A program made the position numbers and the translations under genes. A DNA stretch of 26,336 nucleotides, taken from UHGV virus genome UHGV-0273073. One strand, given 5' to 3'. A model generated the notes under the pieces. That model saw nothing but the letters and a program-made list of their open reading frames with translations. It did no database searches and had not been told where the DNA came from. Source of the DNA: a virus. Every line of letters begins with the position of its first letter. Position 1 is the stretch's first letter. Shown piece by piece: positions 4,016-24,318 of the stretch.

Positions 4016-4223
4016 GGGTCCTTTCCGGTGATCCGACAGGTTACGGGGCGGCGACCTCGCGGGTTTTCGCTATTTATGAAAATTTTCCGGTTTAAGGCGT
4101 TTCCGTTCTTCTTCGTCATAACTTAATGTTTTTATTTAAAATACCCTCTGAAAAGAAAGGAAACGACAGGTGCTGAAAGCGAGCTTTTTGGCCTCTGTCG
4201 TTTCCTTTCTCTGTTTTTGTCCG
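4016..4223 (+). promoter_or_regulatory. cos: Prophage cos site (cosQ-cosN-cosB); cosN 12-nt cohesive-end sequence GGGCGGCGACCT at 4046..4057
   Basis: Sequence matches the lambda genome termini as I recall them (…GGTGATCCGACAGGTTACG | GGGCGGCGACCTCGCGGGTTTTCGCTATTTATGAAAATTTTCCGG…); lies immediately upstream of Nu1. Confidence 0.9.

Positions 4224-4754: not shown

Positions 4755-4780
<26 letters not shown>
4235..4780 (+). CDS. Nu1: Terminase small subunit
   Basis: 181 aa; MEVNKKQLADIFGASIRTIQNWQEQGMPVLRGGGKGNEVLYDSAAVIKWY… essentially as lambda Nu1; winged-HTH N-terminus. Confidence 0.97.
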
Positions 4781-8461
<3,681 letters not shown>

Positions 8462-8481
<20 letters not shown>

Positions 8482-9793
8482 TCTCCCGCATATTGCCAGC
8501 ATGGCCTTTAATGAGCCGCTGATGCTTGAACCCGCCTATGCGCGGGTTTTCTTTTGTGCGCTTGCAGGCCAGCTTGGGATCAGCCGCCTGACGGATGCGG
8601 TGTCCGGCGACAGCCTGACTGCCCAGGAGGCACTCGCGACGCTGGCATTATCCGGTGATGATGACGGACCACGACAGGCCCGCAGTTATCAGGTCATGAA
8701 CGGCATCGCCGTGCTGCCGGTGTCCGGCACGCTGGTCAGCCGGACGCGGGCGCTGCAGCCGTACTCGGGGATGACCGGTTACAACGGCATTATCGCCCGT
8801 CTGCAACAGGCTGCCAGCGACCCGATGGTGGACGGCATTCTGCTCGATATGGACACGCCAGGCGGAATGGTGGCGGGGGCATTTGACTGCGCTGACATCA
8901 TCGCCCGTGTGCGTGACATAAAACCGGTATGGGCGCTGGCCAACGACATGAACTGCAGTGCAGGTCAGCTGCTTGCCAGTGCCGCCTCCCGGCGTCTGGT
9001 CACGCAGACCGCCCGGACAGGCTCCATCGGCGTCATGATGGCTCACAGTAATTACGGTGCTGCCCTGGAGAAACAGGGTGTGGAAATCACGCTGATTTAC
9101 AGCGGCAGCCATAAGGTGGATGGCAATCCCTACAGCCATCTTCCGGATGACGTCCGGGAGACACTGCAGTCCCGGATGGACGCAACCCGCCAGATGTTTG
9201 CGCAGAAGGTGTCGGCATATACCGGCCTGTCTGTGCAGGCTGTGCTGGATACCGAGGCTGCAGTGTACAGCGGTCAGGAGGCCATTGATGCCGGACTGGC
9301 TGATGAACTTGTTAACAGCACCGATGCGATCACCGTCATGCGTGATGCACTGGATGCGCGTAAATCCCGTCTCTCAGGAGGGCGAATGACCAAAGAGACT
9401 CAATCAACAACTGTTTCAGCCACTGCTTCGCAGGCTGACGTTACTGACGTGGTGCCAGCGACGGAGGGCGAAAACGCCAGCGCGGCGCAGCCGGACGTGA
9501 ACGCGCAGATCACCGCAGCGGTTGCGGCAGAAAACAGCCGCATTATGGGGATCCTCAACTGTGAGGAGGCTCACGGACGCGAAGAACAGGCGCGCGTTCT
9601 GGCAGAAACCCCCGGAATGACCGTGGAAACGGCCCGCCGCATTCTGGCTGCAGCACCACAGAGTGCACAGGCGCGCAGTGACACTGCGCTGGATCGTCTG
9701 ATGCAGGGTACACCGGCACCGCTGGCTGCAGGTAACCTGGCATCTGATACCAATAAAGAATTACTTAATACACCTGAAGCTTTACCGGTATAA
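8462..9793 (+). CDS. C: Prohead protease / scaffold fusion (ClpP/SppA-like protease domain)
   Basis: Starts VTAELRNLPHIASMAFNEPLMLEPAYARVFF (GTG 8462) inside the longer track ORF 8315..9793; overlaps the B 3' end; lambda gpC-like. Confidence 0.95.
9386..9793 (+). CDS. Nu3: Scaffolding protein Nu3, in-frame internal start within C
   Basis: ATG at 9386 in the C frame, preceded by CAGGAGGG; MTKETQSTTVSATASQ… as lambda Nu3. Confidence 0.85.
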   Translation: MTKETQSTTVSATASQADVTDVVPATEGENASAAQPDVNAQITAAVAAENSRIMGILNCEEAHGREEQARVLAETPGMTVETARRILAAAPQSAQARSDTALDRLMQGTPAPLAAGNLASDTNKELLNTPEALPV

Positions 9794-9802
9794 GAGGCAG
9801 TT

Positions 9803-10135
9803 ATGGCGACAAAAGAAGAGTTTAACCATTACCAGCCGCTGGGTAACAGTGATCCGGCTCATACAGCAATTGCGCCTGGCGGATTGAGTGCGAAAACGCC
9901 TGCAATGACCCCGCTGATGCTGGATGGCACTACCCGTAAGCTGGTTGTGTGGGATGGCACCACCGACGGTGCAGCCGTTGGCATTCTGGCGGTTGCTGCT
10001 GACCAGACCAGCACCACACTGACGTTCTACAAGTCCGGCTCGTTTCGTTATGAGGATGTGCTCTGGCCGGAGGCTGCCAGCGACGAGACTAAAAAACGGA
10101 CCGCGTTTGCCGGAACGGCAATCAGCATCGTTTAA
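9803..10135 (+). CDS. D: Head decoration protein
   Basis: 110 aa; …[75 protein letters not shown], lambda gpD-like. Confidence 0.97.
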
Positions 10136-10155
10136 TCTTCCCCTTCATCAACAAA

Positions 10156-10177
10156 GGCCGCCTGTGCGGCTTTTTTT
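10156..10177 (+). terminator. Stem-loop plus T-run in the D-E intergenic region (partial terminator/attenuator)
   Basis: GCCGC (10157..10161) - CTGT - GCGGC (10166..10170) followed by seven T (10171..10177). Confidence 0.5.
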
Positions 10178-10190
10178 ATGGAAATAATTT

Positions 10191-10466
10191 ATGTCTGTAT
10201 ATACAACTGCAGAATTACTGGCATCGACCCAGCATCACTTTAAGTTCGATCCGCTGTTTCTGCGCCTGTTTTTCCGTGAAACCTATCCTTTCACCACGGA
10301 AAAAGTCTATCTCTCACAAATTCCGGGACTGGTAAACATGGCGCTGTACGTTTCGCCGATTGTTTCCGGTGAGGTTATCCGATCCCGTGGCGGCTCCACC
10401 TCTGAATTTACGCCGGGTTATGTCAAACCCAAGCACTTAGCATGGCTTTCTGAGGCTTTCGTGTAG
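10191..10466 (+). pseudogene. E: Major capsid protein E, 5' fragment: codons 1-82 (10191..10436) fused to 9 island-encoded codons then stop
   Basis: MSVYTTAELLASTQHHFKFDPLFLRLFFRETYPFTTEKVYLSQIPGLVNMALYVSPIVSGEVIRSRGGSTSEFTPGYVKPKH is lambda gpE N-terminus; homology ends exactly after His82, followed by LAWLSEAFV*. Confidence 0.92.
10426..10435. repeat. Left copy of 10-bp direct repeat AACCCAAGCA (putative attL core)
   Basis: Identical 10-mer at 20558..20567; both copies sit at the breakpoints of E homology. Confidence 0.8.
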
Positions 10467-10563
10467 TTGCTGGTTTTTACACTTAATCTTTTGATAATAA
10501 AGAATAAGTTTATCTGGCGCTTTCACTGGATTTTCCTCGTTATCTGTGTGTTGCAATCATCTC

Positions 10564-10583
10564 TGTATTGCAGCTTGTATTGC
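10564..10583. repeat. Arm-type direct repeats TGTATTGCA / TGTATTGC at 12-bp phasing (left arm, between attL core and int)
   Basis: The same 9-mer occurs three times at 12-bp phasing on the right arm (20449..20481). Confidence 0.65.
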
Positions 10584-10598
10584 TTTTTGGGGCTAAAA

Positions 10599-11834
10599 AT
10601 GGCTGGCGAGAACAAACTGAGCGACAAAGCACTTAAAGGATATCTGGGGAAACCCAGAGAAAAGCAGATCACCATTGCTGATGGAAAGGGGCTTTCTATT
10701 CGTGTGAGTACCAAGGGGGCTGTGAGCTTTGTTTTCTTCTACAGGTTAGCAGGTGGCCGGGCTGCTCCGGTCTGGCTAACGTTGGGTAAATATCCTGATA
10801 TGTCACTCAAACAGGCAAGAGAAAAGCGCGACGAGTGCCGTGGTTGGTTGGCTGACAAACGTGATCCGCGTATCCAGATTAAGATTCAGGCTGAAGAACG
10901 CTTAAAGCCGGTCACAGTGGAGGATGCACTAAATTACTGGTATGAAAATTACTGTAAGGTGCGTCGTAAAACTCATGCTGTAACGCTTGGCAGATTTCGA
11001 AAGCATATCTTTCCCTATATCGGTCATTTGCCCGTAAATGACACTCACCTATATGAATGGCTGGACTGTTTTGACCGAATTAAACGTAATGCACCAGTTA
11101 TGGCGGCGTATGTTTTTTCTGACACTAAATTAGCTCTTCGTTTTTGTCGGGTACGCCAGTACGCGACGTGTGATGCTTTAAAGGATTTGCGCATGAGTGA
11201 TGTGGGGCAGATTGCAGGTAAGCGGGATCGGGTTCTGGATGAAGCCGAACTGGGCCAGCTCTGGAAGGCAATTTTTGTCGAGCCTGATTTAAAACTAATG
11301 TCTGAATACACGCGAAAAATGTTTGTGCTTTGTACAGTATTTGGATGTCGAATGAGTGAAGCCCGATTATCAGAATGGAGCGAATGGGATCTAGAAAGTT
11401 GGGTTTGGACTGTACCAAAAGAACACTCAAAAACCGGTGTTGAAATCGTCAGACCAGTACCTGAAATTCTACGACAGTGGGTAACGGATGTTCACGAAGA
11501 GACAAAACATACTGGTTATGTGCTGGGAAGTCTGCGAATTAGAGAAAGCGTAAGCAAGATTGGGGGGAAAATCGGTAAACGTTTGGGCCATGAAAAACAA
11601 TGGTCACTACACGACCTTAGAAGAACGCTATCTACTCATCTAAGTGATCTCGGTGTTGAATTTTATGTAGTAGAACAACTGTTAGGCCATGCGCTACCTG
11701 GCGTGGCAGGTGTTTACAACCGGAGTAAGTTTATGGCTAAAAAACTGGATGCTCTGGAACTCTGGACTACATATCTCAATAGCATCGCAGGTGCTGATTC
11801 AAAAGTGACAATCCTCAAACAAAAGGCTGGTTAA
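10599..11834 (+). CDS. int: Tyrosine site-specific integrase, P4 family (N-terminal arm-binding DUF4102-like domain)
   Basis: ATG at 10599 (MAGENKLSDKALKGYLGKP…); catalytic-region motifs HDLRRT and GVYNRSK (Tyr); the track's TTG-initiated extension 10467..10598 covers the arm repeats and is unlikely to be coding. Confidence 0.92.
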   Translation: MAGENKLSDKALKGYLGKPREKQITIADGKGLSIRVSTKGAVSFVFFYRLAGGRAAPVWLTLGKYPDMSLKQAREKRDECRGWLADKRDPRIQIKIQAEERLKPVTVEDALNYWYENYCKVRRKTHAVTLGRFRKHIFPYIGHLPVNDTHLYEWLDCFDRIKRNAPVMAAYVFSDTKLALRFCRVRQYATCDALKDLRMSDVGQIAGKRDRVLDEAELGQLWKAIFVEPDLKLMSEYTRKMFVLCTVFGCRMSEARLSEWSEWDLESWVWTVPKEHSKTGVEIVRPVPEILRQWVTDVHEETKHTGYVLGSLRIRESVSKIGGKIGKRLGHEKQWSLHDLRRTLSTHLSDLGVEFYVVEQLLGHALPGVAGVYNRSKFMAKKLDALELWTTYLNSIAGADSKVTILKQKAG

Positions 11835-11835
11835 C

Positions 11836-12066
11836 ATGAAAAAAATGGCAATTGTTGATAAAAAGGGTCTGGAGTACATTCCTAACATTGACCGAATGAT
11901 CCGTGAGAAAGAATGTCGGGAGCTAACCACTCTTGCGAACAGCACACGCTGGAAGCTGGAGAAGGAAGGAAAATTTCCTAAGCGGATCAAGATTGGTTCC
12001 ACTGCTGTTGCATATCGTCTTTCAGAAGTGCAGGCATGGATTCGAGGTGAGTGGGAAACAACTTAA
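11836..12066 (+). CDS. AlpA-family HTH regulator / excisionase-like protein
   Basis: 76 aa; core RELTTLANSTRWKLEKEGKFPKRIKIGSTAVAYRLSEVQAWI fits the AlpA/Xis pattern; directly downstream of int as in P4-like elements and PICIs. Confidence 0.75.
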   Translation: MKKMAIVDKKGLEYIPNIDRMIREKECRELTTLANSTRWKLEKEGKFPKRIKIGSTAVAYRLSEVQAWIRGEWETT

Positions 12067-12082
12067 CTATTAGGTGGGCATT

Positions 12083-12904
12083 GTGGCTATATTTCATTAT
12101 ACAGATCTTTTTGGTTTGAAAGGTATATTAGACTCTAATTCTTTATGGGCTACAAACATATATTTCTTAAATGATAAAGAGGAGTCTAACCATGGATGTG
12201 AATGCTTTCGAAATACAATTAAAATAGTTGATGACAATATCATTCCAAAAGATAAGAAAACTATTTTGCTCAAGTCTCTTGACATGTATGAGAAAGGGAG
12301 GTTACAAAAAGAAAAAGGGATTGATAAACATGTTTATAGCATCTCTTTTTGTAAGGAAAACGATAAGTTAAGTCAGTGGAGAGGTTACGGAAATAAACAG
12401 GGTGTTTGCATTGAGTTTGATGCGGATGAACTTGTGAGCTTTTCTCAAAATATTTATTTAAATTGTGTTGCACATGATGTTATATATTCAAATAATAACG
12501 ATGTTACTAAGATGAGTAAGGAGTTGGGGGCGTTTTTTTCTTGTAATGGTATTAATATTAAAGAAAAGAATGATCATTTTGTAACAATGGCCTCTACGTA
12601 TCAATTTATATCTAAATACATCCCATTTTTTAAACATCCTAGTTTTATCGAAGAAAATGAATTTAGATTGGTATTTACTCCGCGCATACTAATACCAGAT
12701 GTGCAATTCAGAATAAATAATAATGGTGTCATCCCTTATATCATCATTGGTAATAAAGATCATAGGAAGTTACCAATTAAAAGTATTACTATTGGCCCGA
12801 CAAACGATTATGATTTCATTGAGGCTGGTATAAAAATGTTCTTGGATTCAAAAGGATTTAGTTCAGTGGAAATTAAATCCTCATCAATTCCATTCAGGGG
12901 GTAA
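12083..12904 (+). CDS. Cargo protein of unknown function, AT-rich (possibly DUF2971-like)
   Basis: ORF track 12074..12904; GTG at 12083 preceded by AGGTGG; codon usage and AT content clearly differ from flanking genes; motifs IYFLNDKEE and YSISFCKENDKLSQWRGYGNKQGVCIEF. Confidence 0.7.
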   Translation: MAIFHYTDLFGLKGILDSNSLWATNIYFLNDKEESNHGCECFRNTIKIVDDNIIPKDKKTILLKSLDMYEKGRLQKEKGIDKHVYSISFCKENDKLSQWRGYGNKQGVCIEFDADELVSFSQNIYLNCVAHDVIYSNNNDVTKMSKELGAFFSCNGINIKEKNDHFVTMASTYQFISKYIPFFKHPSFIEENEFRLVFTPRILIPDVQFRINNNGVIPYIIIGNKDHRKLPIKSITIGPTNDYDFIEAGIKMFLDSKGFSSVEIKSSSIPFRG

Positions 12905-12949
12905 GGATTAACACTTTTAATCTATGATGTTATAAAAATGGTGGATAAA

Positions 12950-12969
12950 GGCGACCAGAATTGGTCGCC
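12950..12969. terminator. Hairpin between convergent cargo genes (possible bidirectional terminator)
   Basis: GGCGACCA-GAAT-TGGTCGCC, 8-bp perfect stem. Confidence 0.45.
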
Positions 12970-13035
12970 AATGTGAGTATATAGTTAGCCTTAATCAGAA
13001 TACGAGGTTGTCGACTGATAGGCAATGTGAACAGT

Positions 13036-13392
13036 TCAATATTTAGGTGGTTCAACAAGAGCGTTTATCATTGCTCTCAAATTATCGCGAACACTTATCC
13101 AAGTCTGTTCTGCTCGTTCTAACTCATCAGTGTACAACTTTAATGTTTTATCTATGCCATATGTGGCTATTAAATTTATAGCTTCTTGTAACTTTTCGGG
13201 ATTATTCCTTCTTGGGGGAGTGAATATACCACGGATTTTTCCGGTAATTAAAGCTTTACGGTGTCTACATAGAATACCTTTACTTCCTGCTGGACAATTG
13301 CAAGTCATGATTAGCGAGCCAGAATCGTTTGATACAGTGACTATGTATACATCCAAACTACTGCTACTTGTTGCGAAGAATTCGTATTTCAT
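13036..13392 (-). CDS. Small SWIM-type zinc-finger protein (CxC-x8-CxH)
   Basis: 118 aa; TCNCPAGSKGILCRHRKAL; strong AAGGAG Shine-Dalgarno 7 nt upstream of the ATG on the minus strand. Confidence 0.7.
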   Translation of the reverse strand: MKYEFFATSSSSLDVYIVTVSNDSGSLIMTCNCPAGSKGILCRHRKALITGKIRGIFTPPRRNNPEKLQEAINLIATYGIDKTLKLYTDELERAEQTWISVRDNLRAMINALVEPPKY

Positions 13393-13419
13393 GTGTTAGC
13401 TCCTTGACTTCAATTACTC

Positions 13420-13551
13420 TTATCCTTTTGGTTCAATACCGCGCCGTAGCAGCTCTTTGCGCCCTAATTCTTTAAGCCAGTTGGCTAGGCTTATGCCGTC
13501 GCTCTGCGCTTCTTTGTCGAATTGCTCTTTTAGCTCTGGAGAAATTCGCAT
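13420..13551 (-). CDS. Ribbon-helix-helix (CopG/Arc-like) protein, start uncertain
   Basis: MRISPELKEQFDKEAQSDGISLANWLKELGRKELLRRGIEPKG, C-terminal part of track ORF 13420..13734; 27 nt upstream of the SWIM gene on the same strand. Confidence 0.55.
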   Translation of the reverse strand: MRISPELKEQFDKEAQSDGISLANWLKELGRKELLRRGIEPKG

Positions 13552-13946
13552 TCTGAATTGTGGAGATTGCCCATCACCCTTAGGACTTTTATCGCGTTTG
13601 ATTGTTGACAAGTGACCACCTATTGAATTAGCCTTTTTACTGTTAGGTGACCACCTTAACACGGAGGCACTTAAAAAAGCAAAGCCCGAAGGCGCTAGGA
13701 ACACCAACGGGCTTCTAACCACCAACGATAGCAACAGTATCGAGATAGCTATGAGAAATCATACCACACACCCGCAAGGGCGGGACCCGCACAACCTGAA
13801 TAAATACATCTGGCGTTTTATCGCCCTGAGCACCGCACAACCACGCGTAATACACATCGAGGCCGCCAGCGGACAGGAAGCCCGCCAACAATCCCCAACT
13901 GGCTGCGTGATGATATTCGCCGCCCGTATTCGTCAGGAGGTATGCC

Positions 13947-14132
13947 GTGCTTAAAACCTTCCGTGTATTTGCTCGTGCTGTTAACCCACGAGGCCACACA
14001 ATTGGTATCGCTCAGAACGTGAAGGCTGTTAATGTTCAGACGGCTATTGCTGCGGTGAGAAGCGAATCATCAGAATATGGCTTATCACAAGTCATTATTT
14101 CAGCAGTGTATGAATTAAAAGAGGTGCATTAA
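13947..14132 (+). CDS. Hypothetical small protein, first gene of the replication operon
   Basis: GTG start with perfect AGGAGG 6 nt upstream; stop overlaps the next start. Confidence 0.6.
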   Translation: MLKTFRVFARAVNPRGHTIGIAQNVKAVNVQTAIAAVRSESSEYGLSQVIISAVYELKEVH

Positions 14133-14323
14133 TGCAGGAAATCACATTACACGAAGCCGCTGAACGTGCGCACCAGACAGAGATTATTTGCCGCCTTCTT
14201 GAGGTATACCCTGATAAATTAAATGATGCTGATATATCCGCATTAGCTAGTCTTCTGGCAAGACTGTCAGGAAGTGTTGCACTGTGGTTAATTGATCAGA
14301 GGGTAGAACGTTATGGAGAATAA
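14132..14323 (+). CDS. Hypothetical small protein (operon member)
   Basis: Translationally coupled to flanking ORFs. Confidence 0.55.
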   Translation: MQEITLHEAAERAHQTEIICRLLEVYPDKLNDADISALASLLARLSGSVALWLIDQRVERYGE

Positions 14324-14555
14324 TAAACTTTCGCTTGCAGAGGTGTCGGAATCCATGAACAGTGCAATAAGCTATAATAATTCGGCAATTGAAATTGCAA
14401 ACTTGTGGTTTCAATTGCTGTCAAACAACGAAAGAGATGAATCAACGGCAAGACTTATATTTGCTATTTCTGAATTGCTGGATATTTCCACCAGCAAGAT
14501 AAACAAAGCATTAGAAAAAATTCACGAATTAAAACACCACACAAACGGAATTTAA
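14313..14555 (+). CDS. Hypothetical small protein (operon member)
   Basis: Overlaps the previous ORF; AT-rich. Confidence 0.5.
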   Translation: MENNKLSLAEVSESMNSAISYNNSAIEIANLWFQLLSNNERDESTARLIFAISELLDISTSKINKALEKIHELKHHTNGI

Positions 14556-14559
14556 TTAT

Positions 14560-14859
14560 ATGGGAATGAAAAATACTGGTGTTAATGCCAGCGGCCCCGC
14601 TCGACCTGAATTTATGAACGGCGATATTTACCGCGATAAATACGGCGGCACGGTAACGATTAAAGGCGTGGCAGAACGGCGCATCACTTACCGCCGTGAG
14701 GGGTATAGCTATGACTGCGTGATGCCTGTTTATCAGTTCCGGCGTGATTTTTCCCTGGTATATGCCGCACCCCGCAGTAAGCCCACCAGCAGGGAAAAAG
14801 CGCGGGGAAACATCCAGAAAATGAAAAGCATGATTAACGCATTCAGGGGCAAAAAATGA
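14560..14859 (+). CDS. Hypothetical protein upstream of primase (operon member)
   Basis: 99 aa; stop overlaps the primase ATG (ATGA at 14856). Confidence 0.6.
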   Translation: MGMKNTGVNASGPARPEFMNGDIYRDKYGGTVTIKGVAERRITYRREGYSYDCVMPVYQFRRDFSLVYAAPRSKPTSREKARGNIQKMKSMINAFRGKK

Positions 14860-16607
14860 AACTGGCACCGAACTTAAAAAAACAGCCACGCGACAGACTG
14901 ACAGAGGTAATCATCTTTGCAGGTAGTGATGCGTGGAGCCATGCGAAAGAGTGGCAGGAATGGGCGGGTAAACATATTGCCGCCGACGATGTGCCGCCTG
15001 TCGTGCTGGCTGATGAGCAACTGAAAAACATCACCGATTACCGGATCATTGATGAAGATCGTCAGTGTGTGCGTGTTTACCGCGCAGGACATATCACAGA
15101 GCACAGCATGACGCAGATTGTTACGTTACTGGCTGTGGCTGGAGTGAAGACCGTACACGAATACGCGGGGATTACTGACACCAGCCCCGTGGATTTATCC
15201 GACCAGTTGCCGCGACTCAAAGAGGAATGCGAGCGTGGGGAAAGCCTGGTGCTTAATCTTCCGACGAAGCAAAAGGAGCAACTTTCACAGATGGCAGACA
15301 GTGAGCGGGCACAACTACTTGCCGATCGCTTTGATGGTGTTTGTGTTCATGCAGAAAGTGAAATCGTCCACGTATGGCGCGGCGGGGTATGGTGTCCGGT
15401 CAGCACAATGGAGCTGAGCCGCGAAATGGTGGCGATCTATTCAGAGCACAGGGCCACGTTCAGCAAACGCGTAATCAATAACGCCGTGGAAGCGTTAAAA
15501 GTTATTGCCGCCCCCATGGGGGAGCCGTCCGGTGATTTGCTACCGTTCACTAATGGTGTGCTTAATCTGAAAACGGGGGAATTTTCTCCGCACTCGCCGG
15601 AGCACTGGAGCACCACGCACAATGGTATTGAGTACACGCCACCAGTAGCAGGGGAAAACATCCGCGATAATGCGCCAAATTTCCATAAATGGCTTGAACA
15701 TGCTGCAGGAAAAGACCCGCGCAAGATGATGCGTATATGTGCCGCGTTATACATGATTATGGCGAACCGCTACGACTGGCAGATGTTCATTGAGGCCACC
15801 GGAGACGGGGGAAGCGGTAAGAGTACATTTACCCATATTGCCACCCTGCTTGCAGGCAAACAGAACACCGTAAGCGCAGAGATGACATCACTCGATGATG
15901 CAGGAGGGCGCGCGCAGGTTGTCGTGAGTCGTCTTATCGTCCTTGCCGATCAGCCGAAATATACGGGGGAAGGCACGGGCATCAAGAAAATCACGGGAGG
16001 CGATCCCGTTGAAATCAATCCGAAATATGAGAAGCGATTCACGACGATAATAAGGGCGGTGGTACTGGCAACCAATAACGACCCGATGATCTTTACCGAA
16101 CGGGCCGGAGGTGTGTCACGCCGTCGGGTGATTTTCCGGTTCGACAACATTGTAAGGGAGGACGAAAAAGACAAGGAATTACCGGAAAAGATAGCGGCAG
16201 AAATCCCCGTAATTATCCGCCGCTTGCTGGCTAACTTTGCTGACCCTGAAAAGGCAAGGGCTTTACTACTGGAACAGCGTGACGGTGATGAAGCTCTGGC
16301 AATAAAGCAGCAAACGGATCCAGTTGTTGAGCTTTGCGCGGCGCTTGAGTTTCTGGATGAAGCTCGTGGGCTAATGATGGGCGGTGGTGGTGACTCCGTG
16401 AAGTACACGACCAGAAACAGCCTTTACCGTGTCTATATGGCCTTCATGGCATACACAGGAAAGGGGAAATGTTTGAGCGTGAATGAGTTCGGAAAGGCTA
16501 TGAGGTCAGCGGCGAAAGTTTACGGATATGAATATATTACGCGAAAAGTTAAGGGAGTCACGCAGACCAACGCAACGACTACTGATGATTGCGATGCGTT
16601 TTTATAA
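14856..16607 (+). CDS. Replication primase/helicase (P4-alpha/PICI pri-rep-like, P-loop NTPase)
   Basis: 583 aa; Walker A GDGGSGKST; Walker B-like VLADQ; immediately followed by the iteron array. Confidence 0.85.
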   Translation: MKLAPNLKKQPRDRLTEVIIFAGSDAWSHAKEWQEWAGKHIAADDVPPVVLADEQLKNITDYRIIDEDRQCVRVYRAGHITEHSMTQIVTLLAVAGVKTVHEYAGITDTSPVDLSDQLPRLKEECERGESLVLNLPTKQKEQLSQMADSERAQLLADRFDGVCVHAESEIVHVWRGGVWCPVSTMELSREMVAIYSEHRATFSKRVINNAVEALKVIAAPMGEPSGDLLPFTNGVLNLKTGEFSPHSPEHWSTTHNGIEYTPPVAGENIRDNAPNFHKWLEHAAGKDPRKMMRICAALYMIMANRYDWQMFIEATGDGGSGKSTFTHIATLLAGKQNTVSAEMTSLDDAGGRAQVVVSRLIVLADQPKYTGEGTGIKKITGGDPVEINPKYEKRFTTIIRAVVLATNNDPMIFTERAGGVSRRRVIFRFDNIVREDEKDKELPEKIAAEIPVIIRRLLANFADPEKARALLLEQRDGDEALAIKQQTDPVVELCAALEFLDEARGLMMGGGGDSVKYTTRNSLYRVYMAFMAYTGKGKCLSVNEFGKAMRSAAKVYGYEYITRKVKGVTQTNATTTDDCDAFL

Positions 16608-16620
16608 AAAATGGCAATGG

Positions 16621-16850
16621 TTATCTACCTTGTCTACCTGACTGAAAGAAAATACTTTTATTTCAATGTATTAATGCAGGTAGATAACTATTTTTCACTG
16701 TCTACCTGTTATCTACCTTATCTACCCATTTTTGTAGACAGGTAAGGAGACGGGTAGAGATGAGGTAGACAGCTATTTGGGGCTGTCTACCTCCCTGAAA
16801 CCCGCGCCATTACTGGCCTGATAACTAATCAGGTAGACAAGGTAGACAAG
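16621..16850. repeat. Iteron-type replication origin: at least 12 copies of GTCTACC / GGTAGAC in both orientations plus an AT-rich spacer
   Basis: Copies at about 16623, 16632, 16678, 16701, 16711, 16720, 16734, 16753, 16764, 16785, 16831, 16841; AT-rich 16641..16676. Confidence 0.8.
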
Positions 16851-16896
16851 GTGGTGGTGCACAAAAAACTTTTTAAACGAGGGGGTAAAAATAAAA

Positions 16897-17154
16897 ATGC
16901 ACACATCAGGAAAACTGAACAAACATATAAAGCCACATTACCGCGCCCTTGATATGGCTGAACACTGGCTAAGGGTGGCGATTAAGGCAATAGACCGCAA
17001 CGCCGGGGAAGGATACGCGAAAGCACATCCCGAACTGATAAGCGCATTCATGACAACGGCGGCTGCAAACTTTGCCACGCTGACCGAACGGGAGATTGCC
17101 GAAGCGGAGGAAGTGACAACCATCAATATTAAGTCCGGAGAGCAGGCAGCATGA
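16897..17154 (+). CDS. Hypothetical 85-aa protein
   Basis: Stop overlaps the ssb start. Confidence 0.5.
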   Translation: MHTSGKLNKHIKPHYRALDMAEHWLRVAIKAIDRNAGEGYAKAHPELISAFMTTAAANFATLTEREIAEAEEVTTINIKSGEQAA

Positions 17155-17600
17155 CGGCGCAAATAGCAGCTTACGGGCGGCTGGTGGACGCCCCGCAGAC
17201 AAAACAGACCAGCAAGGGCACCCCCATGACGCTGGCGCGTATGGCGGTATCACTGCCCTGCAGCCAGTCGGATGACGGTCAGGCGACGATGTGGTTATCT
17301 GTTCTGGCGTTTGGCAGACAAGCCGACGCGCTGGCAAAGCATCACAAAGGCGAACTCCTGAGCGTGGCGGGTAACATGCAGGTGAGTCAGTGGACTGGAC
17401 AGAACGGTGAAACGCGGCAGGGCTGGCAGGTTATCGCAGACAGCGTAATCAGTGCGCGAACGGTGCGACCGGGCGGCAAAAAAGGCCAACAGGGGCAGGC
17501 TACTGACGCACTGAACAGAGCAAAACAACAGGCAGATCAGCAAGGAAGCCATCCACCAGTGGGAGATAATGAGCAATGGGGAGATGATATTCCGTTTTAA
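17151..17600 (+). CDS. ssb: Single-stranded DNA-binding protein
   Basis: 149 aa; OB-fold core and acidic C-terminal tail ending DDIPF, as in E. coli SSB. Confidence 0.9.
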   Translation: MTAQIAAYGRLVDAPQTKQTSKGTPMTLARMAVSLPCSQSDDGQATMWLSVLAFGRQADALAKHHKGELLSVAGNMQVSQWTGQNGETRQGWQVIADSVISARTVRPGGKKGQQGQATDALNRAKQQADQQGSHPPVGDNEQWGDDIPF

Positions 17601-17618
17601 ATATTGCCAATAAAAAAG

Positions 17619-17643
17619 GCCGGAAAAAAATAAATTTTCCGGC
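17619..17643 (+). other. Hairpin (9-bp stem GCCGGAAAA / TTTTCCGGC) between ssb and the capsid-homolog gene
   Basis: Perfect inverted repeat with 7-nt loop AAATAAA; no downstream T-run. Confidence 0.4.
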
Positions 17644-17817
17644 ATGCTACATAAATCCAGACCAAAGGGAGTGAAGATATTAACACTAATTATCCGCGCT
17701 GAAGTTGTCATCCCAAAACTTTATACAACATTGCACTCGGTTGCATGTATTCGCATGACAAATATCGGTGATAGCATATATCCACAATTATTTTTAATGA
17801 ATGCAAAGAGGATGCGT

Positions 17818-18858
17818 ATGGTTGATTTATATTCGCCTACCCAGCTTGTACAGGTGGTTAATGCTGTAGATGTACAAAAACAACTAAATGCGTTGTTTAC
17901 CAGTTTGTTTTTTACTCGCTCGGTAATGTTTGAATCGCGCGATATTATTCTTGATACAATCGACGATCCAAATATCCCAATTGCAGCGTTTTGTTCTCCT
18001 ATGGTGGGTAGTAAAGTTTCACGTGACGAAGGGTACGAATCAAAAACAATTCGTCCAGGCTATATGAAGCCGAAAAGCAGCATTGATCCAAATAAGTTAG
18101 CTGTGCGCCCTGCTGGTGTATCACCTGAGCAATACAATGCTTTTGGAGCGCGTAATATTAAAGTTAAACAGGCGATTGTAAATCAGGCTAAAGCTATTCG
18201 TGCACGTATTGAATGGCTTGCCGTTCAGGCAATCACAACGGGGAAAAATATCATTGAGGGCGATGGTATTGAACGTTATGAGCTGGACTGGAATATTAAA
18301 CCACAAAATATCATCACTCAGTCTGGCGGTGCTGAGTGGTCAGGTAAGGATAAAGAAACTTTTGATCCAAATGATGATATTGAGAGCTACGCAGAATTTA
18401 GTGAGGGCGTCACTAATATCATCATTATGGGCGGTAATGTATGGAAGAAATACCGTTCATTCAGAGCGATAAAAGAGGCTCTGGATACCCGTCGTGGTTC
18501 TAATTCCGAACTGGAAACGGCCCTTAAAGACCTTGGTGATTCGGTGAGTTTTAAAGGGTATATGGGCGATGTTGCGATTGTTGTATACAGCGGGCGTTAT
18601 ACCGACGAGGACGGAACTGAAAAACATTTCCTTGATCCTGATTTGATGGTGCTTGGCAATACGGCTCTTCAGGGGATTGTCGCCTATGGCGGTATTCAGG
18701 ATCCGGAGCTAATCCGAATGGGGCTGACTAAAGCCGAACTTGCACCGAAAAACTATATTGTGCCTGGTGATCCGGCTATTGAATATGTGCAGACACATTC
18801 AGCACCACAGCCAATACCGGCCCGCATCAATCGTTTTGTTACCGTTCGCATTGGCTAA
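17818..18858 (+). CDS. Island-encoded major capsid protein homolog (divergent gpE-like)
   Basis: 346 aa from ATG 17818 (AGAGG 6 nt upstream), inside track ORF 17644..18858. Blocks ITQSGGAEWSGKDKETFDPNDDIESYA and DTRRGSNSELETALKDLGDSVSFKGYMGDVAIVVYSG align with ITQSGGTEWSKRDKSTYDPTDDIEAYA and DTRRGSHSELETAVKDLGKAVSYKGMYGDVAIVVYSG of the resident E (20569..21348). Confidence 0.9.
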   Translation: MVDLYSPTQLVQVVNAVDVQKQLNALFTSLFFTRSVMFESRDIILDTIDDPNIPIAAFCSPMVGSKVSRDEGYESKTIRPGYMKPKSSIDPNKLAVRPAGVSPEQYNAFGARNIKVKQAIVNQAKAIRARIEWLAVQAITTGKNIIEGDGIERYELDWNIKPQNIITQSGGAEWSGKDKETFDPNDDIESYAEFSEGVTNIIIMGGNVWKKYRSFRAIKEALDTRRGSNSELETALKDLGDSVSFKGYMGDVAIVVYSGRYTDEDGTEKHFLDPDLMVLGNTALQGIVAYGGIQDPELIRMGLTKAELAPKNYIVPGDPAIEYVQTHSAPQPIPARINRFVTVRIG

Positions 18859-18867
18859 GGGGGAGCA

Positions 18868-19209
18868 ATGGCTACTCATTACACTGAACTCATGGCTGGC
18901 ACTGAAGCACTGGTGACTACGCTGGGGATATTTTCAGCTAATAAAGGGGTAATTCCTGCATTTACGCCACTGATGCAGGAAGATGCAACAGGTGCACTGG
19001 TGGTATGGGATGGTTCGAGCGTAGGTAAAGCGGTTTATGTTTCCGCTGTACAAATCGACACCGCGAAAAAAACACAGGCTCAGGTCTATAAGACAGGTGT
19101 CTTAAATGTTGATGCTCTGAACTGGCCTGAGTCTGTAAAAGAACTGTCAGTAAAGATTGCAGCGTTTGTTGGCTCAGGTATTTCTGTTCAGCCGCTGGCT
19201 CGTGTGTAA
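18868..19209 (+). CDS. Island-encoded head decoration protein homolog (divergent gpD-like)
   Basis: 113 aa; TPLMQEDATGALVVWDGSS…YKTGVLNVDALNWPES…AAFVGSGISV aligns with resident [20 protein letters not shown]…[16 protein letters not shown]…[11 protein letters not shown]. Confidence 0.8.
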   Translation: MATHYTELMAGTEALVTTLGIFSANKGVIPAFTPLMQEDATGALVVWDGSSVGKAVYVSAVQIDTAKKTQAQVYKTGVLNVDALNWPESVKELSVKIAAFVGSGISVQPLARV

Positions 19210-19220
19210 AGGGGGATACA

Positions 19221-19604
19221 ATGCAAAATGATTACAATGACCTTAAGCCAATTGCCGAAATGATGTACCCGAATCCAGCTGTAGAGGAATTAAAAGCTAT
19301 CGCTGACAAAATGTGTTTAAGCGAGCGCCTTGTTGATATGAATCAGGTGATGGAAATTACAACCCTGAGTCGGCGTACACTGCTAAACCTTGAGGCTAGT
19401 GGAGAGTTCCCGGAGCGTGTGCAGGTTACGGAAGGGCGTAAGGCCTGGTATTTAAGTGAAGTGATCGACTGGATAAATAATATTCCTCGCGCTTCTGAAT
19501 ATTGCCGCGTACCTGTCCCAAAAAAGCCAGATGCGGCGCTATGCCTCAAGATTGAGCGTGTACGCCGCAATGCACGGGATGGTCGCTATAAGCTGATTGG
19601 TTGA
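19221..19604 (+). CDS. HTH protein (AlpA/excisionase-like fold with N-terminal extension) adjacent to the cos-like site
   Basis: 127 aa; MNQVMEITTLSRRTLLNLEASGEFPERVQVTEGRKAWYLSEVIDWI. Confidence 0.6.
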   Translation: MQNDYNDLKPIAEMMYPNPAVEELKAIADKMCLSERLVDMNQVMEITTLSRRTLLNLEASGEFPERVQVTEGRKAWYLSEVIDWINNIPRASEYCRVPVPKKPDAALCLKIERVRRNARDGRYKLIG

Positions 19605-19629
19605 TGAAATTAGGGCCCGCTCTGGCTGG

Positions 19630-19838
19630 CGGGTCCTTTCCGGCGATCTGACAGGCTACGGGGCGTCAGGCGCGCGGATTTTCGCTATTTATGAAAATTT
19701 TCCGGTTTAAGGCGTTTCCGTTCTTCTTCGTCGTAACTTAATGTTTTTATTTAAAATACCCCCTGAAAAGAAAGGAAACGACAGGTGCTGAAAGCGAGCT
19801 TTTTGGCCTCTGTCGTTTCCTTTCTCGTTTTTTGTTCA
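19630..19838 (+). promoter_or_regulatory. Island cos-like packaging site: cosQ/cosB nearly identical to the prophage cos (4016..4223), divergent cosN-equivalent 12-mer GGGCGTCAGGCG at 19661..19672
   Basis: By-eye alignment: about 150 bp of the cosB arm differ by only a few substitutions; the cosN 12-mer differs at 5 of 12 positions; no terminase genes in the island. Confidence 0.85.
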
Positions 19839-20185
19839 ACAATTGCGCGGTAGCAACTCGCCTTTCTGCTGCTGGAACTTATCCGGCACGTTTCCAGTGA
19901 TATCTGTCAGACAGCAGGCAAACAGGAGACAACGCAGTCGGACAGCACGACCGCTGAAAATTACGCGCGTGTGGTGCTTGAGGTTATGCGCCGTGACGGT
20001 ATCGAGCTTAACGGCGTGGATATGTGCAACATACGCACCAGAGTTCTGGAGTTGTTGCCATATCGTCGCCGTTCCATGTAGCGAAGGGAGAGCGCGAAAA
20101 ACACTTACCAGTGGAAGAAGCAGGAGCGGTTACGGCGGTAACTTGCTGATATTCCCGATAACGCAAAATTGCGTTGGCTGGCAGA

Positions 20186-20404
20186 GTGCAAATTTGCACG
20201 ATGGTCTAACCCATTGATTCTTTCGAAAATCACCATTGGGGGATAACGGGGGAATAAGCCTAACCCATTGATTCTTCCACAATCCTCAATTTGAGGAGAG
20301 CGGAATTATTACATGGCTGGATCAGGACTCCTTGAATTCAAGGAGTTCTCCTGTGTGAAAATGAAATTACCCAAGTTGGTGGGTGAGTTGCAGATCTGCA
20401 ACTC
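20186..20404. promoter_or_regulatory. Cluster of four palindromes in the island right arm: 20186..20199, 20284..20296, 20328..20345, 20385..20404
   Basis: GTGCAAATTTGCAC (14 bp, perfect), CCTCAATTTGAGG (imperfect), CTCCTTGAATTCAAGGAG (18 bp, perfect), GAGTTGCAGATCTGCAACTC (20 bp, perfect). Confidence 0.6.
20206..20276. repeat. Two copies of the 17-mer CTAACCCATTGATTCTT (20206..20222, 20260..20276), resembling the att core (AACCCA…)
   Basis: Exact direct repeat; shares AACCCA with the core AACCCAAGCA. Confidence 0.6.
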
Positions 20405-20448
20405 GGCTATGAAACTTAATAATCGAACAGCATGTAAATTCATTTCTG

Positions 20449-20481
20449 TGTATTGCAGCATGTATTGCAGCATGTATTGCA
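20449..20481. repeat. Three phased copies of TGTATTGCA (12-bp period), right-arm arm-type sites
   Basis: 20449, 20461, 20473; the same motif occurs twice on the left arm (10564..10583). Confidence 0.65.
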
Positions 20482-20557
20482 ACATAGTCATTCTGGTAGA
20501 GATTATGCTCTATTTTTCCTCTTATATCATTCACATACTTACGTCATTGACTCATGT

Positions 20558-20567
20558 AACCCAAGCA
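20558..20567. repeat. Right copy of 10-bp direct repeat AACCCAAGCA (putative attR core)
   Basis: Identical to 10426..10435; E homology resumes 1 nt after it. Confidence 0.8.
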
Positions 20568-20568
20568 T

Positions 20569-21348
20569 GAGGTGAATCCGCAGATGACCCTGCGTCGCCT
20601 GCCGGATGAAGATCCGCAGAACCTGGCTGACCCGGCTTACCGTCGTCGCCGTATTATTCGGCAGAATATGCTGGATGAAAATCTGGCGATTGCCCAGGTC
20701 GAAGAGATGCAGGCAGTTTCTGCCGTGCTTAAGGGCAAATACACCATGACCGGTGAAGCCTTCGATCCGGTTGAGGTGGATATGGGCCGCAGTGCGGCGA
20801 ATAACATCACGCAGTCCGGCGGCACAGAGTGGAGCAAGCGTGACAAGTCCACGTATGACCCGACCGACGATATCGAAGCCTACGCGCTGAACGCCAGCGG
20901 TGTGGTGAATATCATCGTGTTTGATCCGAAAGGCTGGGCGCTGTTCCGTTCCTTCAAGGCCGTCAAGGAGAAGCTGGATACCCGTCGCGGCTCTCATTCC
21001 GAGCTGGAGACAGCGGTAAAAGACCTGGGCAAAGCGGTGTCTTATAAGGGAATGTATGGCGATGTGGCCATCGTCGTGTATTCCGGACAGTACGTGGAAA
21101 ACGGCGTCAAAAAGAACTTCCTGCCGGACAACACGATGGTGCTGGGGAACACTCAGGCACGCGGTCTGCGCACCTATGGTTGCATTCAGGATGCGGACGC
21201 ACAGCGCGAAGGCATTAACGCCTCTGCCCGTTACCCGAAAAACTGGGTGACCACCGGCGACCCGGCGCGTGAGTTCACCATGATTCAGTCAGCACCGCTG
21301 ATGCTGCTGGCTGACCCTGATGAGTTCGTGTCCGTTCAACTGGCGTAA
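20569..21348 (+). pseudogene. E: Major capsid protein E, 3' portion (codons 83-341), separated from its 5' part by the island
   Basis: Frame reads TAA-P-K-H-EVNPQMTLRRLPDEDPQNL… through the normal C-terminus …DPDEFVSVQLA; 82 + 259 residues = 341 as in lambda gpE; an in-frame TAA (20557..20559) lies just upstream. Confidence 0.92.
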
Positions 21349-21389
21349 TCATGGCCCTTCGGGGCCATTTTCTCTCTGTGGAGGAGTCC

Positions 21390-21785
21390 ATGACGAAAGA
21401 TGAACTGATTGCCCGTCTCCGGTCGCTGGGTGAGCAACTGAACCGTGATGTCAGCCTGACGGGGACGAAAGAAGAACTGGCGCTCCGTGTGGCAGAGCTG
21501 GAAGAGGAGCTTGATGACACGGATGACGCAGCCGGTCAGGACACGTCTGTCAGCCCGGAAAATGCGCTGACCGGACATGAAAATGAGGTGGTATCAGCAC
21601 AGCCGGATTCCGTGACTGATACGGCTGCTCTGGTCACGGTTGTGGCACTGGTGACGCTGCATACCGATGCACTTCACGTCACGCGGGATGAGGCTGTGGC
21701 ATTTGTGCTGCCGGGAACGGCGTTTCGTGTCTCTGCCGGTGTGGCAGCCGAAATGACAGAACGTGGCCTGGCCAGAATGCAATAA
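21390..21785 (+). CDS. FI: DNA packaging / head completion protein FI
   Basis: MTKDELIARLRSLGEQLNRDVSLTGTKEELALRVAELEEELDD…, lambda gpFI-like; ATG 21390 with GGAGG upstream. Confidence 0.93.
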   Translation: MTKDELIARLRSLGEQLNRDVSLTGTKEELALRVAELEEELDDTDDAAGQDTSVSPENALTGHENEVVSAQPDSVTDTAALVTVVALVTLHTDALHVTRDEAVAFVLPGTAFRVSAGVAAEMTERGLARMQ

Positions 21786-21796
21786 CGGGAGGCGCT

Positions 21797-22150
21797 GTGG
21801 CTGATTTCGATAACCTGTTCGATGCTGCCATTGCCCGCGCCGATGAAACGATACGCGGGTACATGGGAACGTCAGCCACCATGACATCCGGTGAGCAGTC
21901 CGGCGCAGTAATACGTGGTGTTTTTGATGACCCTGAAAATATCAGCTATGCCGGACAGGGCGTACGCGTTGAAGGCTCCAGCCCGTCCCTGTTTGTCCGG
22001 ACTGATGATGTGCGGCAGCTGCGGCGCGGCGACACGCTAACCATCGGTGAGGAAAACTTCTGGATAGACCGGATTTCGCCGGATGATGGCGGAAGCTGTC
22101 ATCTCTGGCTTGGGCGGGGCGTACCGCCTGCCGTTAACCGTCGCCGCTGA
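21797..22150 (+). CDS. FII: Head-tail connector protein FII
   Basis: 117 aa, lambda gpFII-like. Confidence 0.95.
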   Translation: MADFDNLFDAAIARADETIRGYMGTSATMTSGEQSGAVIRGVFDDPENISYAGQGVRVEGSSPSLFVRTDDVRQLRRGDTLTIGEENFWIDRISPDDGGSCHLWLGRGVPPAVNRRR

Positions 22151-22161
22151 AAGGGGGATGT

Positions 22162-22740
22162 ATGGCCATAAAAGGTCTTGAGCAGGCCGTTGAAAACCTC
22201 AGCCGTATCAGCAAAACGGCGGTGCCCGGTGCCGCCGCAATGGCCATTAACCGCGTTGCTTCATCCGCGATATCGCAGTCGGCGTCACAGGTTGCCCGTG
22301 AGACAAAGGTACGCCGGAAACTGGTAAAGGAAAGGGCCAGGCTGAAAAGGGCCACGGTCAAAAATCCGCAGGCCAGAATCAGGGTTAACCGGGGGGATTT
22401 GCCCGTAATCAAGCTGGGTAATGCGCGGGTTGTCCTGTCCCGCCGCAGGCGTCGTAAAAAGGGGCAGCGTTCATCCCTGAAAGGTGGCGGCAGCGTGCTT
22501 GTGGTGGGAAACCGTCGTATTCCCGGCGCGTTTATTCAGCAACTGAAAAATGGCCGGTGGCATGTCATGCAGCGTGTGGCCGGGAAAAACCGTTACCCCA
22601 TTGATGTGGTGAAAATTCCGATGGCGGTGCCGCTGACCACGGCGTTTAAACAGAATATTGAGCGGATACGGCGTGAGCGTCTTCCGAAAGAGCTGGGCTA
22701 TGCGCTGCAGCATCAACTGAGAATGGTAATAAAGCGATGA
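22162..22740 (+). CDS. Z: Tail completion protein Z
   Basis: 192 aa, lambda gpZ-like. Confidence 0.95.
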   Translation: MAIKGLEQAVENLSRISKTAVPGAAAMAINRVASSAISQSASQVARETKVRRKLVKERARLKRATVKNPQARIRVNRGDLPVIKLGNARVVLSRRRRRKKGQRSSLKGGGSVLVVGNRRIPGAFIQQLKNGRWHVMQRVAGKNRYPIDVVKIPMAVPLTTAFKQNIERIRRERLPKELGYALQHQLRMVIKR

Positions 22741-23132
22741 AACATACTGAACTCCGTGCAGCCGTACTGGATGCACTGGAGAAGCATGACACCGGGGCGA
22801 CGCTTTTTGATGGTCGCCCCGCTGTTTTTGATGAGGAAGATTTTCCGGCAATTGCCGTTTATCTCACCGGCGCTGAATACACGGGCGAAGAGCTGGACAG
22901 CGATACCTGGCAGGCGGAGCTGCATATTGAAGTTTTCCTGCCTGCTCAGGTGCCGGATTCAGAGCTGGATTCGTGGATGGAGTCCCGGATTTATCCGGTG
23001 ATGAGCGATATCCCGGCACTGTCAGATTTGATCACCAGTATGGTGGCCAGTGGCTATGACTACCGGCGCGACGATGATGCGGGCCTGTGGAGTTCAGCCG
23101 ATCTGACTTATGTCATTACCTATGAAATGTGA
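22737..23132 (+). CDS. U: Tail terminator protein U
   Basis: 131 aa, lambda gpU-like; start overlaps the Z stop. Confidence 0.95.
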
Positions 23133-23139
23133 GGACGAT

Positions 23140-23880
23140 ATGCCAACACCAAATCCTCTGGCACCGGTGAAAGGGGCCGGGACCACACTGTGGGTTTATA
23201 ACGGGAGCGGCGACCCTTATGCAAACCCGCTTTCAGACAATGACTGGTCGCGTCTGGCAAAGGTTAAAGACCTGACGCCCGGCGAACTGACCGCTGAGTC
23301 CTATGACGACAGTTATCTCGATGATGAAGATGCGGACTGGACCGCGACCGGACAGGGGCAGAAATCTGCCGGAGATACCAGCTTCACGCTGGCGTGGATG
23401 CCCGGAGAGCAGGGGCAGCAGGCGCTGCTGGCGTGGTTTAATGAAGGTGATACCCGTGCCTATAAAATCCGCTTCCCGAACGGCACGGTCGATGTGTTCC
23501 GCGGCTGGGTCAGCAGTATCGGTAAGGCGGTGACGGCGAAGGACGTGATCACCCGCACGGTGAAAGTCACCAACGTAGGACGTCCGTCGATGGCAGAAGA
23601 TCGCAGCACGGTAACAGCGGCAACCGGTATGACCGTGACGCCAGCCAGCGCTTCCGTAGTGAAAGGGAAGAGCACCACGCTGACCGTGGCATTCCAGCCG
23701 GAAGGCGCAACCGACAAGAGCTTCCGTGCGGTGTCAGCGGATAAAACAAAAGCCACCGTGTCGGTCAGTGGTATGACCATCACCGTGAATGGCGTTGCTG
23801 CAGGTAAGGTCAACATTCCGGTCGTATCCGGTAATGGTGAGTTTGCTGCGGTTGCAGAAATCACCGTCACCGCCAGTTAA
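23140..23880 (+). CDS. V: Major tail tube protein V (with C-terminal Ig-like domain)
   Basis: ATG 23140 ([20 protein letters not shown]…), 246 aa; lambda gpV-like. Confidence 0.95.
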
Positions 23881-23895
23881 TCCGGAGAGTCAGAG

Positions 23896-24318
23896 ATGTT
23901 CCTGAAAACCGAATCATTTGAACATAACGGTGTGACCGTCACGCTTTCTGAACTGTCAGCCCTGCAGCGTATTGAGCATCTCGCCCTGATGAAACGGCAG
24001 GCAGAACAGGCGGAGTCAGACAGCAACCGGAAGTTTACTGTGGAAGACGCCATCAGAACCGGCGCGTTTCTGGTGGCGATGTCCCTGTGGCATAACCATC
24101 CGCAGAAGACGCAGATGCCGTCCATGAATGAAGCCGTTAAACAGATTGAGCAGGAAGTGCTTACCACCTGGCCCACGGAGGCAATTTCTCATGCTGAAAA
24201 CGTGGTGTACCGGCTGTCTGGTATGTATGAGTTTGTTGTGAATAATACCCCTGAACAGACAGAGGACGCCGGGCCTGCAGAGCCTGTTTCTGCGGGAAAG
24301 TGTTCGACGGTGAGCTGA
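23896..24318 (+). CDS. G: Tail assembly chaperone G
   Basis: 140 aa, lambda gpG-like; contains the slippery heptamer near its 3' end. Confidence 0.95.
   Translation: MFLKTESFEHNGVTVTLSELSALQRIEHLALMKRQAEQAESDSNRKFTVEDAIRTGAFLVAMSLWHNHPQKTQMPSMNEAVKQIEQEVLTTWPTEAISHAENVVYRLSGMYEFVVNNTPEQTEDAGPAEPVSAGKCSTVS

Follow-up and report, generated by a model that had tools for sequence, protein, structure and literature searches.

The stretch analysed here, 26,336 nucleotides (nt) of the UHGV virus genome UHGV-0273073 (the window, meaning that whole stretch at its full length), carries the late region of a lambda-type prophage whose major capsid gene E is interrupted by an island of 10,132 nt (~10.1 kb). 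The 5' part of the gene (E'), on the plus strand like all oriented features below unless stated otherwise, occupies 10191-10435 and holds codons 1-82, and its truncated open reading frame (ORF) runs 9 codons into the island, to a stop at 10466; in L001, L003 and L004 the corresponding stretch bears the annotation of an incomplete major capsid protein. The 3' part, at 20568-21348, starts with the last base of codon 82 and continues through codon 341 to the stop. Identical copies of the 10-bp core AACCCAAGCA bound the insert at 10426-10435 (attL), where it equals the att identity block published for Eco567.11.E_Phage_cap_E_80 (supplement of the paper introduced below), and at 20558-20567 (attR), and no other copy exists in the window even at one mismatch. 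Because some 330 repeated 10-mer pairs are expected by chance in 26 kb (our own estimate), the repeat alone is not proof, and its weight lies in its position: the core falls on codons 79-82, E is split at codon 82, and the island is co-oriented with the late operon, with int, alpA and the primase gene on the same strand as E.

When 10191-10435 is joined to 20568-21348, the result is a stop-free gene E of 1026 nt and 341 codons. Its product aligns along its entire length with the lambda major capsid protein of solved structure 7vi9 (residues 1 to 341 in both, E = 2e-220). The rebuilt gene is 100.0% identical over 1026 nt to an uninterrupted gene annotated as 'major capsid protein' in Escherichia coli WS0115A, in the same prophage at the same (Qin) chromosomal locus as the window. 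BLAST of the window against L002, the WS0115A prophage, places 9161-10435 on 9971-11245 and 20558-26336 on 11236-17014, the two flanks overlapping by exactly 10 bp, and an alignment of attL, attR and attB gives base-precise junctions with the target core. A tRNA-type attachment site is excluded, as no tRNA genes were found in the window. The first-pass annotation, a model's reading of the bare sequence, had claimed that a 10-bp direct repeat bounds the insert, that the left flank, one repeat and the right flank read as in-frame E, and that the two halves should be collinear with an intact E at this locus in relatives; both pairs of repeat coordinates, the frame and the collinearity all hold. 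On excision, the attP junction of the island is predicted to contain ATTGACTCATGTAACCCAAGCACTTAGCATGG and the repaired-E junction GTCAAACCCAAGCATGAGGTG.

Gene content was assigned by Pfam, PHROG and NCBIfam searches of island ORFs of at least 60 amino acids (aa). At the left end, a tyrosine integrase of 411 aa (10599-11834; Arm-DNA-bind_3 and Phage_integrase domains) is followed by an AlpA-family excisionase/regulator (11836-12066; PF05930, E = 3e-15). A rightward operon opens with a gene for an Icd-like host cell-division inhibitor (13751-13954; NF033153, E = 2e-17, also the PGAP label of its homologues in L001 and L004) and continues through four small ORFs (13947-14859), three of them with PHROG matches only and the last a DUF4222 protein (14560-14859), to a primase/helicase (14856-16607) with D5_N, DUF5906, Pox_D5 and P4-family primase C-terminal domains. 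The putative replication origin lies directly downstream (16622-16848), where 10 GGTAGAYA iterons in both orientations are packed, out of 11 in the whole window against 0.8 expected. A small conserved protein (16897-17154; phrog_1231) precedes the single-stranded DNA-binding protein (SSB; 17151-17600, PF00436), and after these come a capsid protein of the gpE family (346 aa, 17818-18858; PF03864, E = 2e-41; PDB 3bqw, E = 3e-121; lambda 7vi9, E = 2e-76), a homologue of the gpD head decoration family (18868-19209; PF02924) and a second AlpA-family helix-turn-helix protein, AlpA2 (127 aa, 19221-19604; PF05930, E = 8e-9; AlpA structure PDB 8c3t, E = 2e-9). The island capsid protein is 42% identical to helper E and differs from it at the position equivalent to the att core, and the decoration homologue shares 41% identity with helper D over a local alignment of 78 aa. 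A longer capsid ORF of 404 aa with an N-terminal extension is an ORF-calling artefact: an AGAGGA ribosome-binding site and an ATG at 17818 give 346 aa, identical to the annotated prototype.

Two cos sites complete the picture. The helper cos region (4015-4220) lies just upstream of Nu1/nohA (4235-4780) and combines a canonical 12-nt cosN, GGGCGGCGACCT (4046-4057, after ACG at 4043-4045), with cosB; the island cos (19630-19835) has the 12-nt cosN GGGCGTCAGGCG (19661-19672, after ACG at 19658-19660) and a cosB almost identical to that of the helper, so that the two regions form a direct repeat of 206 nt at 94% identity. Among the island ORFs searched, neither Pfam nor PHROG returned a terminase, portal, protease, tail or lysis family. 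The gene list of the first-pass annotation (integrase, AlpA, primase/helicase, iterons, SSB, capsid and decoration homologues, cos) is thus borne out by the Pfam and NCBIfam matches, the iteron count and the cos alignment, as is its statement that terminase, portal and tail genes are missing; its capsid call holds as to family, with the gene corrected from the 404-aa ORF to 346 aa. Together these features match those of a Gram-negative phage-inducible chromosomal island (PICI), which is ~10-15 kb long, carries int, alpA and a primase-type replication module with an origin, and lacks tail and lysis genes.

The arrangement of a satellite within a capsid gene is not new. Tommasini, Mageeney and Williams (2023, NAR Genom Bioinform 5:lqad036; PMC10111431) described helper-embedded PICIs (HE-PICIs), of which their survey counted 491 across 14 late-gene sites, with 201 at E:Phage_cap_E:80. 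The prototype, Eco567.11capE (11capE), is an 11-kb (11.1 kb) PICI that has its own capsid gene and a 10-bp identity block and interrupts gene E in a lambdoid prophage of E. coli NRG857c. Mitomycin C makes the whole helper-satellite composite excise and replicate; precise excision of the satellite follows at about 2 h after induction and restores E, to the extent of 42-98% by 2-3 h (PMC10111431). The use of a helper structural gene as attB, which the first-pass annotation had called unusual, is not a novelty, and its model of a PICI-type satellite that sits co-oriented in E of a lambdoid helper and restores the gene on excision coincides with the published one.

The window island agrees with the prototype (L003 in our comparison) from the attachment site inwards. 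Its attL is that of the prototype (supplementary file 5 of the paper) except for 1 nt, with the same core, and the att block, AACCCAAGCA (or AGCCGAAGCA), sits at about position 80 of the Phage_cap_E profile as in the rest of the site group. HE-PICIs are reported to carry a doubled motif, TGTATTGC/tgTGTATTGCantgTGTATTGCa, 81 +/- 2 upstream and 132 +/- 2 downstream of the attP centre (PMC10111431); in the window the doubled motif TGTATTGCAGCTTGTATTGCT (10564-10584) starts ~133 nt after the core centre and three tandem units, TGTATTGCAGCA (20449-20481), end 81 nt before it, giving 3 matches where 0.01 would be expected. The integrase is 99.5% identical to that of 11capE over 411 aa; AlpA (over 73 aa), the capsid protein, the D-like protein and AlpA2 are each 100% identical, SSB is 97% and the phrog_1231 protein 89% identical. 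Near-identity to the founding member being sufficient, the window integrase is assigned from its sequence to the HE-PICI clade. At the DNA level, 8096-12055, a block that runs from the helper late genes through E' into int and alpA, matches 11capE at 99.1%, and 16944-19835 at 98.4%.

The island nevertheless is no copy of the prototype. Its primase shares 48% identity with that of 11capE and 80% with that of EcCICFT073, and its right end finds its match in further members on the published list, Eco1042.11 among them. 11capE has the same target codon in a lambda-type E, the same core, attL, motif spacing, orientation and island-type cosN, but is 11.1 kb long against 10.1 kb here and is carried by a helper at icd rather than at the Qin locus. 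The accessory zone also differs, with a DUF2971 gene, a SWIM gene and a ribbon-helix-helix (RHH) protein gene in the window and no DUF2971 at this position in 11capE, as does the cargo at the right end, which is HEPN and DUF262 in 11capE and a short stretch with a pseudogene here. The zones of the window island follow the HE-PICI order of integration (Int and AlpA), dynamic/Bro, replication and late, and the island lies within a helper late gene, co-oriented and without replacement sequence, so that the gene is disrupted. The insert is very probably an HE-PICI of the site group E:Phage_cap_E:80, a mosaic relative of Eco567.11capE in gene E of a long, late-gene-complete Qin prophage.

Among Gram-negative cos PICIs the model element is EcCICFT073 (Fillol-Salom et al. 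2018 ISME J; 2019 Mol Cell, PMC6739421). It shares with the island the gene order of int, alpA, a divergent small regulator, an Icd-like operon, DUF4222, primase, origin, SSB, capsid homologue, D homologue and cos, with 80% identity in the primase, 72% in DUF4222, 69% in SSB, 55% in the capsid protein and only 46% in Int. It is integrated beside phoQ in the chromosome, whereas the window island lies in a prophage gene. Its packaging strategy also contrasts with what we find: EcCICFT073 has a canonical cosN, a private cosB and a Nu1-like protein, Rpp, that retargets helper TerS, and the window island is the reverse, with a helper-type cosB, a variant cosN and no Rpp homologue (tblastn of the 144-aa Nu1-like protein of EcCICFT073 found no match in the window). 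The 127-aa helix-turn-helix protein was considered as a candidate Rpp and rejected, as it matches only an AlpA structure. Satellite phage P4 shares with the island an Arm-DNA-bind_3 integrase, an AlpA-family gene, the P4-family primase domain, an Icd-like gene and a cos used, in the island presumably, by helper terminase, but it depends on a P2-like helper and targets a tRNA gene, where the window island has a lambdoid helper and a phage-gene target; counterparts of Sid, Psu and Delta, with which P4 controls capsid size and transactivation, were absent from the Pfam and PHROG searches of island ORFs, and Rfam gave no match to the C4 RNA, which confers CI immunity in P4. Capsid-forming PICIs (cf-PICIs), like the island, carry their own major capsid homologue; however, they are defined by portal, protease, terminase and head-tail connector genes, and the island has only capsid and decoration homologues.

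The same junctions recur in many genomes. Of 5,426 complete E. coli genomes, 173 carry the junction detected by a 300-nt probe across attL, NRG857c being the best match at 99.7%. E of this type is contiguous in 3,153 genomes, and E-like sequence can occupy as many as 5 places in one genome. Coverage of this island variant reaches 80% or more in 26 genomes, none above 98.7% identity. IMG/VR holds 67 loci that encode a close relative of the integrase; all visible junctions fall at the same site in E, the core there is AACCCAAGCA, AGCCGAAGCA or AGCCCAAGCA, the islands measure 10.3-11.3 kb, and dozens of contigs show both junctions. In five loci (L010, L011, L012, L018 and L026) the core alleles of attL and attR differ, one being AACCCAAGCA and the other AGCCGAAGCA. 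A match is hence not required at the first five positions of the identity block, which would place strand exchange in or to the right of AAGCA.

The prophage that surrounds the island is the long form of the Qin prophage. The window flanks are 98-99% identical to E. coli chromosomes, and the closest complete relatives carry the Qin set of flxA, relBE, hokD, ydfU, quuQ, cspF/B, essD, ydfR, rrrQ, rzpQ, cspI, gnsB, ydfO and nohA, followed further on by tfaQ, pinQ and ydfK. Its lambda-type head and tail region is complete, which that of the Qin form in E. coli K-12 is not known to be. Helper genes present at full length in the window are Nu1, A, W, B, D, FII, Z, U, V and G, and the reading frame of the tape-measure gene stays open as far as the window reaches.

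From the gene order and the behaviour of the prototype, the following mechanism can be proposed. As long as the island is integrated, helper gpE would not be made, and helper late transcription would read through E' into int and alpA; a promoter/terminator scan, used only on this point since its counts overall were at shuffle level, found no plus-strand terminator-like site between E' and int. Int and AlpA would then excise the island and rebuild E, the excised circle would replicate from its own iteron origin, and helper terminase would cut the circle at the island cos and package it into lambda-type heads, to leave the cell on helper tails. Such a satellite would keep the gene for its helper's capsid hostage while its own excision is tied to the helper late phase, which is biology already described; the value of the window is one more intact-looking mosaic HE-PICI in a late-gene-complete form of the Qin prophage.

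Several observations weigh against this account. The evidence for excision comes from the prototype, and the copy in the window is known from sequence alone. No virions or plaques were recovered for the prototype (PMC10111431), which leaves packaging and transfer a prediction for every member of the family. The attP junction pattern is absent from IMG/VR viral contigs, and a scan of metagenomes for an attP-type junction found a single contig, L123 from human gut (8,651 nt, ~2.9x coverage), in which the right end of the island is joined to int via one AACCCAAGCA (6599-6630); this attP-type junction lends thin support to excision in the family, since it may stem from a tandem pair as well as from an excised circle. 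Between the island and its resident helper, cosN disagrees at 5 of 12 positions, and cleavage by the resident terminase can therefore not be taken for granted. Finally, the helper is a Qin-type prophage whose early region lies beyond the window and has been replaced by insertion sequence (IS) elements in the closest complete relative, LST200A, and relatives at the Qin locus are decayed, with IS1 in the primase gene (L001 17529-18225) and an internal stop in ssb (L001 19503-19952; L004 26727-27176). L001 also carries, downstream of the island cos, a captured copy of Nu1 (terS) with an internal stop (22201-22752).

The serious alternative is accordingly one about the activity of this copy, not about the identity of the element. 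The island may be an abandoned relic, fixed in a cryptic, non-inducible Qin prophage, inherited vertically and neither excising nor being packaged unless a new helper infects the cell, a state of affairs that we consider possible while not favouring it. The Qin identity of the flanks (cspF/B/I, essD, ydfR, rrrQ, nohA, tfaQ, pinQ), the IS-replaced early region and the lesions in the Qin-locus relatives all speak for it, as do the truncated appearance of many HE-PICI helpers (PMC10111431) and the one island pseudogene in the window. However, the window copy is free of the IS1 insertion in the primase gene and of the ssb and terS stops seen in those relatives; its int, alpA, primase, ssb, capsid and D-like genes are full length, at 97-100% identity to the excising prototype (the primase itself at 48%), and all visible helper late genes are intact. 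Furthermore, the closest Qin-locus copies have another core allele (AGCCGAAGCA, against AACCCAAGCA in the window) and another right end, which speaks against one insertion frozen in place.

A second explanation is that the insert serves the prophage or the host as a DNA switch of the regulated gene integrity or 'active lysogeny' type, merely timing capsid synthesis, and is not a parasite at all. Excision that restores the gene, as in known elements of that kind, and co-orientation with the late operon would fit such a role, but the insert has its own replication module, cos, capsid genes and PICI gene order, the same island occupies E in prophages that differ in chromosomal site (icd in NRG857c, the Qin locus in the window, with ybhC and tRNA-Arg listed in the table of PMC10111431), and identical E genes exist without it, all of which makes this role very improbable. 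That the contig is a chimera, in which an island with its own E homologue was misjoined into a lambdoid E that is multicopy in E. coli, has a negligible chance of being true and was set aside, a doubt that the first-pass annotation had raised itself, since the same base-precise junctions at the target core recur in complete genomes and in dozens of IMG/VR contigs and the island homologue is only 42% identical to helper E and differs from it at the core.

Given the preferred reading of an HE-PICI in E of a Qin prophage, the difference in cosN between island and resident helper merits closer attention; cosN is not discussed in the 2023 paper (PMC10111431), and the difference is a point absent from it. 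The variant GGGCGTCAGGCG is kept in 11capE (L003 11087) and L001; the comparison of island with helper cosN also drew on L124 (2948-2962). Wherever a composite shows both cos sites, canonical cosN belongs to the helper and variant cosN to the island (11 of 11, the NRG857c pair included). We considered whether the variant is exclusive to satellites and rejected this: among 53 IMG/VR contigs with variant cosN, 49 show it in the AlpA2/capsid context of the island and one is cut at the contig end, but the other three (L074, at 1260, L109 and L122) are lambdoid prophage contigs in which it lies directly upstream of Nu1 and TerL 98-99% identical to those of the window. In L074, E is intact. The near-identity of these terminases suggests that one terminase type probably tolerates both cosN alleles.

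We put forward, as an unlikely and frankly speculative idea, that HE-PICIs with a private cosN and a helper-type cosB form a sub-family with a hitherto undescribed means of keeping satellite DNA apart from helper DNA during packaging or end-joining, or else that packaging is done not by the embedding prophage but by a partner from the rarer lambdoid lineage of L074, L109 and L122. If true, an embedding prophage that does not package might also explain the lack of virions from the prototype.

The remaining genes of the island are mostly accessory. In the variable 'Bro/dynamic' zone, a DUF2971 gene (12074-12904; PF11185, phrog_1762, a weak PADLOC candidate PDC-S31) is followed on the minus strand by a gene for a SWIM zinc-finger protein (13036-13392; PF04434, phrog_13130, E = 1e-82); a Bro-N domain was not detected in this zone. 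Also on the minus strand, an ORF at 13420-13734 has a C-terminal stretch of ~44 aa (MRISPELKEQ...) that resembles RHH proteins of the Arc/HicB type (phrog_228, Arc-like repressor, E = 4e-6; a weak HicB match). Divergent from the Icd operon, it is a possible regulator of the island, and it has no similarity to the YlcI/YnfO genes found at the same position in 11capE and EcCICFT073. The accessory slots vary between islands, with DUF2971 and SWIM in the window (12074-13392; weak PADLOC matches PDC-S31 and PDC-S62), HEPN and DUF262 in the prototype (L003 11537-13253) and a second DUF2971 in LST200A (L004 30083-30841), and from their domains these variable genes look like defence-type cargo. Two further ORFs were discarded: a minus-strand ORF at 13715-13999 overlaps the Icd-like gene, has no matches and was treated as spurious, and one of 124 aa at 19843-20217, Cys/Trp-rich and with no family or structure match, looks spurious and lies in another frame than the pseudogene that it overlaps. 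That probable pseudogene (19869-20138) is a remnant of a homologue of the last gene of EcCICFT073, to which it is 63% identical over 90 aa, and it carries an internal stop.

No C4, isrK or other RNA was found in the island with Rfam at a permissive E <= 0.1; the sole Rfam match in the window, the cspA thermoregulator at 1788-2173 (110 bits, E = 9e-28), is the leader of the Qin gene cspI and is unrelated to the insertion. Near the right end of the island lie two direct repeats of 44 nt (20206-20249 and 20260-20303) that are 75% identical to each other; each holds an inverted CCCATTG/CAATGGG-like element, and the second resembles, at 88% similarity, sequence close to the EcCICFT073 right end. 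From this structure, they are possible protein-binding sites.

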